NCBI GenBank assembly: GCA_963761725.1 | Contig: CAVXHP010000006.1 | Coordinates: forward strand, 573,534-637,533 | Length of the DNA stretch: 64,000 bases | DNA from: an uncultured Cytophagales bacterium | GTDB lineage: Bacteria; Bacteroidota; Bacteroidia; Cytophagales; Bernardetiaceae | Direction: 5' to 3' | Shown here: positions 12,039 through 12,212 of the stretch, piece by piece | Position numbering within the stretch: the stretch's first letter is position 1 | How the letters are laid out: each line of letters starts with the position of its first letter | Notes under the pieces: model-generated | Databases searched by the model: none | What the model saw: the letters and a program-made list of their open reading frames with translations, nothing else | What the model was told of the DNA's origin: nothing | Made by a program: the position numbers and the translations under genes

Positions 12039-12212
12039 TTGGTGTCGCTTCGCTAAAACACCAACAACGGCATTGTAACTCATCCGAATTAGTTTATAGT
12101 ATTATCTTCATTTTTTTTAAGTCTGTACCGACGAAGGTCTGACTTGGGGAAAATAAGCCTTTTTTGAGCTTCAAATACATCTTTTAAACTGGTCAGACCT
12201 TCAGTACAGACC
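12039..12212. repeat. compound GC-rich palindromic element. A family-A hairpin 'ttggtgtcgcttcgctaaaacaccaacaacggc' sits beside a ~92-bp MITE-like unit bounded by 20-bp inverted repeats (gtctgtaccgacgaaggtctgac / gtcagaccttcagtacagac).
   Basis: Inverted repeats are read directly from the sequence. Family-A copies also lie at 21350-21386 and 45532-45568. Confidence 0.6.

Follow-up and report, generated by a model that had tools for sequence, protein, structure and literature searches.

The window (the whole stretch of DNA analysed, 64,000 nt in length) contains several families of palindromic elements, all of which are intergenic and, at ~47–56% GC, GC-rich against the 31% GC of the window background, as an earlier note on this sequence had described; a scan of the window detects no tRNA or tmRNA genes. 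The earlier note had counted three copies of one of these families, family A, and a pattern search, shuffled controls, and a covariance model agree with that count. In particular, the pattern TTGGTGTCGCTNNGCTAARACACCAACAACGGC, with ≤3 mismatches allowed, matches the 64-kb window at 12039, 21350, and 45532, in each case on the + strand, and matches none of 100 shuffles (0 copies expected by chance vs 3 real copies); and a covariance model derived from 84 different copies of the element, run on the window with filters off, recovers exactly these three copies, at 67, 56, and 56 bits, and no others. A model candidate at 43506–43550 was rejected as AT-rich noise. Including the closing pair and the foot, the units occupy 12035–12071, 21346–21382, and 45528–45564 (+ strand, 37 nt each) and have the general form N-TTGTTGGTGT-CGCTNNGCTAAA-ACACCAACAA-N'-GGC. 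Over the 84 distinct sequences, 97.8% of cells are paired, and the 37-nt unit with its 11-bp stem is a short imperfect palindrome of the kind expected of a REP.

The three copies differ in integrity. Copy 1 (12035–12071, + strand, 67.3 bits) reads G-TTGTTGGTGT-CGCTTCGCTAAA-ACACCAACAA-C-GGC and has an 11-bp stem without mismatch; its − strand is a GCC-hairpin with an inner GC-GAA-GC mini-hairpin, and its DNA fold has an energy of −10.7 kcal/mol (z = −3.6; range −10.4 to −10.7 kcal/mol, z about −3.5). It lies in the divergent gap between ORFs 10440–11708 (− strand) and 12333–13421 (+ strand), and is present at the identical site in contig L116 (98% identical), the only fetched locus that is syntenic; in a presence/absence comparison its elements are the same. 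Copy 2 (21346–21382, + strand, 56.4 bits) has a G/G stem mismatch and a C..A closing pair, and copy 3 (45528–45564, + strand, 56.0 bits) has an A/C stem mismatch, which is G-T on the − strand, and the loop variant TG. A half-site at 11866, also listed in the earlier note, is present as sequence, but not as a complete element. Specifically, ACACCAACAA at 11868–11877 is an exact 10-mer that occurs 6 times in the window vs 0.08 expected (extra copies at 11868 and 32625), and forms part of a candidate 3′ half of a family A unit at 11866–11880 (+ strand, GGACACCAACAAAGC); this half-site has no 5′ arm and is missed by the covariance model, and may be a decayed family A remnant.

The earlier note had further associated family A with disrupted or odd small ORFs at two loci, and here the positions stand. 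Copy 3 is located 96 nt downstream of the stop codon of ORF 45660–46949 (− strand) and 49 nt upstream of the N-terminal fragment (45285–45479, − strand) of a Uma2 (DUF820) putative endonuclease gene, which is in two pieces, 44841–45206 and 45285–45479 (− strand), through a frameshift. We rejected the REP as the cause of this split, the gene's own frameshift being located ~250–320 nt from the REP, so that the two are simply adjacent. Copy 2 sits within a 46-aa ORF, 21308–21448 (− strand), which is likely to be either a spurious ORF or a gene that has been truncated. The small-ORF cassette that holds copy 2 is bracketed by near-identical, bidirectional, terminator-like palindromes, AAAAAGCCTTTCAA.ATTAATTGAAAGGCTTTTT, located 800 bp apart at 20834–20874 and 21634–21674; another such palindrome is present at 10387–10427.

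The earlier note had proposed a search for further copies elsewhere, and such copies are abundant. We scanned one genome per species with a 21-base-specified pattern, for which, by our own arithmetic, ~0.3 chance matches are expected, and obtained family A in at least 115 stretches from at least 22 species-level genomes. Among the matches listed, the carriers are mostly AT-rich Cytophagales/Bacteroidia MAGs, together with the complete chromosome of Bernardetia sp. OM2101, and 122 of 129 instances are intergenic. Exact-pattern copies number at least 33 in the CAVRCG MAG and at least 36 in CAKZOK. Family A thus consists of many dispersed, nearly all extragenic copies, as does a REP; the copies are mostly single or in direct tandem, REPIN-type inverted pairing not being their predominant arrangement, and across the at least 22 genomes the flanks of most copies are unrelated up to the edge of the hairpin. 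Inverted pairs 2 kb apart in L045 and L051 were examined and rejected, since they enclose ordinary genes and no transposase. Four loci from MAGs labelled Bifidobacterium, Methylacidiphilales, and Chitinophaga pinensis (L059, L075, L096, and L115) carry family A on contigs of ~33% GC; their taxon labels or binning are probably wrong, and we therefore claim no spread beyond Bacteroidota/Ignavibacteria.

Comparison of the copies defines the conserved elements of the hairpin. The closing pair, which lay outside the search pattern, occurs in all four Watson–Crick forms (GC 36, UA 15, CG 10, and AU 7), and the covariation score of the family is reached in 0 of 500 shuffles, which points to selection on the hairpin; the conservation of 21 of the core positions is partly produced by the search pattern itself. 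In the loop, N2 is C in 116 of 129 of the matches listed and N1 varies freely, so that the complementary strand contains GC-GNA-GC, a motif of very stable DNA mini-hairpins. The foot located 3′ of the stem is GGC (G in 117, G in 122, and C in 93 of the 129 matches listed), equivalent to GCC located 5′ of the stem on the other strand; the canonical REP tag GT[AG]G is absent from family A, in which the foot is conserved but is GGC/GCC. The copies also exhibit a strand bias. Specifically, in the 8-kb samples the strand that is locally richer in C carries the GGC form 73 times, against 36 for the other strand (p = 5e-4), and between co-directional genes the GGC form is opposite to transcription in 41 cases and in the same direction in 18. 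This bias fits a strand-specific single-strand mechanism, although it is confounded with gene orientation, replication and transcription being inseparable in 8-kb samples.

The intergenic placement and the conservation of sequence in many genomes could also be expected of hairpins used by the host at the level of the transcript, as terminators, mRNA-stabilising 3′ hairpins, or a small regulatory RNA motif. Consistent with such a role, the 41 vs 18 bias means that the transcript would usually contain the GCC form, and the mismatch of copy 3 turns into a G-U pair on the − strand. However, the sequences that follow the stem are GGCATTG, GGCTAGA, and GGCATCG on the + strand and CCAAATA, GTACACA, and ATCATTT on the − strand, with no T/U run on either strand, indicating that the elements are not intrinsic terminators, the role that the earlier note had suggested. 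Furthermore, family A is found in divergent (14), convergent (18), and both kinds of co-directional gene contexts, with no gene family recurring beside it among the 721 ORFs of the 115 loci that were clustered. Rfam yields 0 matches at the gathering score over the whole window and, at 11950–12250 with E ≤ 10, no match better than chance (E about 5 or above). The conservation is explained, without recourse to a host function, by the close association with RAYT genes described below, and we consider a role in the transcript improbable.

Two features of family A, its GTTG/CAAC ends (the unit reads GTTG...CAAC) and its 34–37 nt length, resemble those of Bacteroidota class 2 CRISPR repeats, and L091 contains two copies 71 nt apart, as might solitary CRISPR-like repeats. 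The copies in the window, however, are 9.3 and 24.2 kb apart, the tandem pairs found elsewhere (L032, L111, and L112) have 'spacers' that are themselves repeated, and no cas-like family is present among the neighbours. The lack of arrays argues that family A does not comprise CRISPR repeats, and we regard this possibility as extremely remote.

RAYT genes were sought among the ORFs of all fetched DNA by means of their HUH and Tyr motifs. The search reveals two 171-aa HUH/Tyr genes, in L079 and L047, that directly adjoin family A copies, and thereby answers positively, in related genomes, the question raised in the earlier note of a link to a TnpA-REP tyrosine transposase. In L079, the RAYT gene (6436–6951) has GCC-form copies upstream (6301–6337 and 6368–6404) and GGC-form copies downstream (6962–6998 and 7208–7244); L047 has the same layout around a RAYT gene at 1856–2371 (− strand), as does a metagenome contig, L120, around a RAYT gene at 1201–1716, the protein product of which is 85% identical to that of L047. 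Long-loop family A sets are thus inverted around a 171-aa RAYT gene in three genomes. In L079, a duplicated 3′ fragment of the RAYT gene is located at 7000–7170, between the two downstream family A copies, which suggests a past REP-mediated rearrangement at this REPtron.

The 171-aa protein is a RAYT-type Y1 HUH enzyme. It contains the motifs NHIH..WQ..YIHNNP, matches Pfam Y1_Tnp PF01797, and gives a full-length match to NCBIfam REP_Tyr_transpos NF047646 (E = 1e-19), although its score of 70 bits falls short of the equivalog cut-off of 80. JGI uses the name RayT for several of its 2621 homologues. The AlphaFold model of the protein (pLDDT 93) has as top PDB match 4ER8 (TM 0.61–0.63), with IS200/IS605 transposase structures as next-best fold matches. 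RAYT homologues 56–64% identical to it, in L117, L118, and L122, are likewise flanked by inverted copies of a hairpin that has the same stem and foot as family A and a short loop. This short-loop form reads GTTGTTGGTG-AAAA/TTTT-CACCAACAAC-GGC, and the homologues that it flanks come from Pontibacter fetidus, a MAG labelled Ignavibacteria, and one other contig. A further homologue, in L121, is accompanied by a different stem, with the GCC foot and a TTAT loop kept.

Neither the window nor the Bernardetia-like loci yielded a RAYT gene or pseudogene in a motif search and in tblastn of the RAYTs against all fetched DNA, and no RAYT of this clade is present in the sampled blocks of the closest relatives CAKZOK, CAVRCG, DAIUBX, and Bernardetia sp. 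OM2101, which amount to ~4% of those genomes. A RAYT-like gene in L002 (CAKZOK) was rejected as a partner of family A: it belongs to another clade with repeats of its own, and the family A copy is 5.5 kb away. This gene, in the region 3644–7582 of L002 (CAKZOK contig 45), encodes a 227-aa RAYT with motifs NHVH..YIDQNP and has REP-like insertions inside its coding sequence; five tandem hairpin repeats are located upstream of it, and the repeat inside it matches the REP of AFM05242.1 (F. litoralis, subclass 2.4). The ORFs that flank it, 3644–5377 and 6263–7582, look by eye like halves of one large restriction/methyltransferase-type gene.

The RAYTs adjoining family A resemble a class already described. 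RAYT subclass 2.6 (Quentin et al. 2018, BMC Genomics 19:475, PMC6006769), equivalent to Bertels group 5, is mostly from Bacteroidetes, with proteins of ~179 aa containing NH[LIV]H, WQ, and YIH[QN]NP, and with REPs that have no GTAG tag and were called 'atypical' structures. The size and motifs of this subclass match those of the RAYTs found here; the enzymes of L079, L047, and L120 match subclass 2.6 by motifs and cognate REP rather than by phylogeny, and are assigned to it provisionally on that basis. In Table S1 of that study (PMC6006769), GCCGTTGTTGGTGTTATCACCAACAACC flanks the subclass 2.6 RAYT AEI49282.1 of Runella slithyformis, and this REP shares its GCC foot and its 10-bp stem with the − strand of family A, and has a short loop; a Pedobacter saltans REP with loop TTAGCATAGCG has the same TTAGC-NNA-GCG loop module as family A. 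Mini-hairpins of the GC-GNA-GC type occur in other REPs in that table as well (PMC6006769). Relative to the subclass 2.6 REPs, family A comprises a Runella-type stem joined to a 12-nt loop with an inner GC-GNA-GC mini-hairpin, a long-loop form that is found neither in Table S1 of PMC6006769 nor in a full-text literature search for the literal core sequence; the spread of this form over at least 22 genomes and its embedding in MITE-like composites are likewise found in neither. The same table (PMC6006769) gives Flexibacter (Bernardetia) litoralis three RAYTs of subclass 2.6 and two or more of subclass 2.4, together with their REPs, indicating that relatives of the window organism were already known to hold several REPtrons.

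We conclude that family A is probably the REP of a Bacteroidota RAYT (TnpA-REP) clade of HUH/Y1 enzymes related to IS200 transposases and matching subclass 2.6. The proposal in the earlier note that the palindromes are REP-like families is borne out by the dispersal in at least 22 genomes, by the inverted placement around the RAYT genes of L079, L047, and L120, and by the short-loop version being a listed Runella REP. That the palindromes of the window are REP/REPIN families, with family A tied to a defined Bacteroidota RAYT clade, is supported and is not surprising.

The resulting system is similar to, and differs from, that of E. coli. As with E. coli REP/TnpA-REP, the palindrome is short, imperfect, and extragenic, a conserved foot adjoins its stem, inverted copies flank the RAYT gene, and the HUH/Y1 fold is common to the 171-aa RAYT and to the REP hairpin-bound structure of E. 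coli TnpA-REP, 4ER8, the best structural match. In contrast, the E. coli foot is GTAG (GCC here), protein identity is ~14%, and the host is an enterobacterium rather than an AT-rich member of Bacteroidota. The subterminal hairpins of IS200/IS605 (IS608 and ISDra2), which a Y1 HUH enzyme recognises when the DNA is single-stranded, may be analogous to family A, and the orientation bias is seen in both; unlike these, family A does not form the ends of a transposase-carrying insertion sequence, but comprises hairpins dispersed on their own, and the RAYT homologues found are each at a single place, unlike IS200/IS605 insertion sequences. By analogy with E. coli TnpA-REP and IS608, from which we infer RAYT binding, cleavage, and active strand, single-stranded 5′-GCC-N-TTGTTGGTGT-TTTAGC-GNA-GCG-ACACCAACAA-N' would fold into an 11-bp hairpin with a GC-GNA-GC mini-hairpin cap, the folding strand (GCC form) being the − strand in the window. 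The RAYT would recognise the hairpin together with the GCC foot, and would cut and rejoin single-stranded DNA, with the result that copies would spread into intergenic DNA.

The main rival to identification of family A as a RAYT-mobilised REP concerns the window's own lineage, in which the hairpin could be a captured module, carried as cargo by TIR-bounded MITEs that are moved by a DDE-type transposase. The sequences around copies 1 and 2 bear on this directly. Copy 1 is fused to an upstream module at 12004–12034 (+ strand, GGTGTTGTAAAAAATATGATAGGTTATTTG), the left end of a MITE-like composite; the module has 26 matches, almost every one of which immediately precedes a family A core, and 24 of them are in CAKZOK loci (90–94% identity over 29–33 nt, with one 22-nt match at 100%); complete forms of the composite end ...ATCATACTTTGTGTAACACCACC. 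Copy 2 is preceded at 21314–21345 (+ strand) by the left terminal inverted repeat, GAAGTTATTTAAGAAT, and spacer of a ~140-nt MITE carrying a family A REP; the MITE is complete in L016, L072, and L097 (CAKZOK) and in L100 (Bernardetia sp. OM2101), and is represented in the window by its left half only, with no right-hand repeat. A variant of family A is also carried by a third composite, TAGAGTACTGGACA...TGTCCAGTACTCTA. In relatives, the composites seen around copies 1 and 2 have terminal inverted repeats and are multi-copy, and many CAKZOK contigs end inside composites. Since most CAKZOK family A copies are located inside TIR-bounded composites, a different transposase could move them there. 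Against this, the flanks of most copies in the at least 22 genomes are unrelated right up to the hairpin, the bare hairpin flanks RAYT genes, no target-site duplication is clear by eye, no matching transposase is present among the 721 neighbouring ORFs, and copy 3 has no recognisable composite. We accordingly judge the cargo reading possible, with less than an even chance, and note that the composites may be the vehicle that spreads the hairpin in the window's lineage.

The state of the window copies is consistent with past rather than current activity. The truncation of the composites containing copies 1 and 2 and the stem mismatches in copies 2 and 3 suggest older, decaying insertions, and the lack of a RAYT in the window indicates that its three copies are passive; the family A copies of the window therefore look like older, decaying, passive insertions. 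We consider it unlikely that long-loop family A is more than a selfish REP, being either a REPtron that passes by horizontal transfer between families of Bacteroidota or a module recruited for a function of its own; in the latter case it could serve, for example, as a single-strand DNA recognition or transcript-processing site used by other mobile elements and by the host. The basis for this suggestion is that the 36-nt sequence, inner GNA mini-hairpin included, is near-invariant in at least 22 species-level genomes that range from 30% to 52% GC, and that it has repeatedly become part of TIR-bounded composites that are unrelated to each other.

Judged by its sequence, family B is a sister REP hairpin of family A. 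Its ancestral form, GTTGCTCGTG-AGGA-CACGAGCAAC-GG(T), agrees with family A at its ends, in the inner GTG/CAC, and in the GG foot, the differences being confined to three central pairs of the stem; the earlier note was right that the two families share the CAACGG core, but understated their similarity. The two family B loci of the earlier note are likewise real, but what had been taken for a copy is in each case two hairpin units in inverted orientation. The first doublet, at 28358–28435, comprises unit (+) 28358–28383, GTCGCTTATGGGGAGACAAGCAACGG, and unit (−) 28410–28435; the second, at 62280–62395, comprises unit (+) 62280–62304, TAGCTCGTGAGGACACAAGCAACGG, and unit (−) 62370–62395, the reverse complement of which is ATCGTTCGTGGAGACACGAACAATGG. 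The second doublet contains a compensatory C-G to T-A stem change and has a fold z of −4.2. At least six other genomes also carry family B, as do 67 metagenome contigs. Of the 137 units found, ~80 are in doublets, and 39 of 42 adjacent pairs are convergent doublets, 29–140 nt start to start. Like both window loci, these have the arrangement of REPINs. A scan of the 67 metagenome loci found no cognate RAYT for family B, and a lone RAYT-like ORF (NHVH..YILENP) was rejected as its partner, being 3 kb from a doublet.

Families C and E are further REP doublets. As in REPINs (Bertels and Rainey 2011, PMC3116915), families B, C, and E each comprise two inverted REPs with a short spacer, and in this respect REPINs differ from family A, which is mostly single or in direct tandem; the feet of the doublets are GG directed inward in family B and GTAG directed outward in family C. 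The earlier note had described a duplicated palindrome at 30168–30270, an interleaved four-arm palindrome, and a unit with inverted-repeat ends, and all three are present and fold as claimed. The first is family C, a GTAG-tagged inverted REP doublet at 30169–30269 (z = −9.1) comprising unit 1 at 30169–30192, GTAG-GGAAAAGGC-AC-GCCTTTTCC, and unit 2 at 30246–30269, GGAAAAGAC-GT-GTCTTTTCC-CTAC; it has homologues in CAVRCG (L078, L010, and L103) and DAIUBX (L019), and resembles the Flexibacter litoralis subclass 2.4 REP GTAGGTCAAAGGCTTGCCTTTGAC. The second, family E, at 47013–47096, has units TCGTTGA..TCAACGA and TCAACGA..TCGTTGA, with three possible folds (z = −2.9); it is multi-copy in CAVRCG, with one homologue 92% identical over 83 nt (L030) and partial copies in L021, L114, L028, and L031. 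The third, family D, at 12119–12214 (z = −3.4), has ~21-bp terminal inverted repeats, GTCTGTACCGACGAAGGTCTGAC ... GTCAGACCTTCAGTACAGAC, and is kept in L116. One full-length, decayed homologue is present in ~1.4 Mb of fetched loci, in L043 (CAKZOK), and its non-orthologous context indicates that 12119–12214 is a dispersed repeat.

Work on REP/RAYT systems has been confined almost wholly to Proteobacteria, and for the Bacteroidota clade (subclass 2.6) the literature offers only 'atypical secondary structures' found by eye. Our analysis supplies for this subclass a clean REP consensus (GCC foot, 11-bp stem, and GNA-capped inner hairpin) with a calibrated covariance model, three REPtrons that link the REP to a defined 171-aa RAYT clade, and a sister family of REPIN-type doublets. 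These REPs and RAYTs are concrete substrates for the question of how a non-GTAG RAYT recognises its hairpin. The repeats explain breaks of short-read assemblies of AT-rich Cytophagales genomes at these sites. For annotation, the palindromes of the window are to be read as mobile-element debris and not as regulatory signals, and small ORFs that overlap them, e.g. 21308–21448 and 11991–12083, are unlikely to be genes.

The window also contains other repeats. ACGAATT-type 31-nt inverted repeats are located at 59037–59067 and 60606–60636, around ORF 59311–60519; we rejected them as insertion-sequence ends, the ORF being a TPR protein and no transposase. A ~55-nt non-palindromic repeat, AAATACTGTAACTGATTAGCGAGTGATTTATATGATTTATATGATAAAAGG, occurs at 875–939, 2474–2538, 3622–3686, and 47752–47816, just upstream of the starts of four minus-strand genes that encode a YggS-like PLP protein, a methyltransferase, an enoyl-CoA hydratase, and a 4HBT thioesterase; it has homologues in DAIUBX, CAVRCG, CAKZOK, and metagenome loci, and could be a shared promoter/operator or another dispersed repeat. 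Tandem heptamers, (TAGTGAT)n, are present in the intergenic gaps at 13418–13472, 13816–13926, and 18761–18815, and similar heptamer runs adjoin family A in other genomes.
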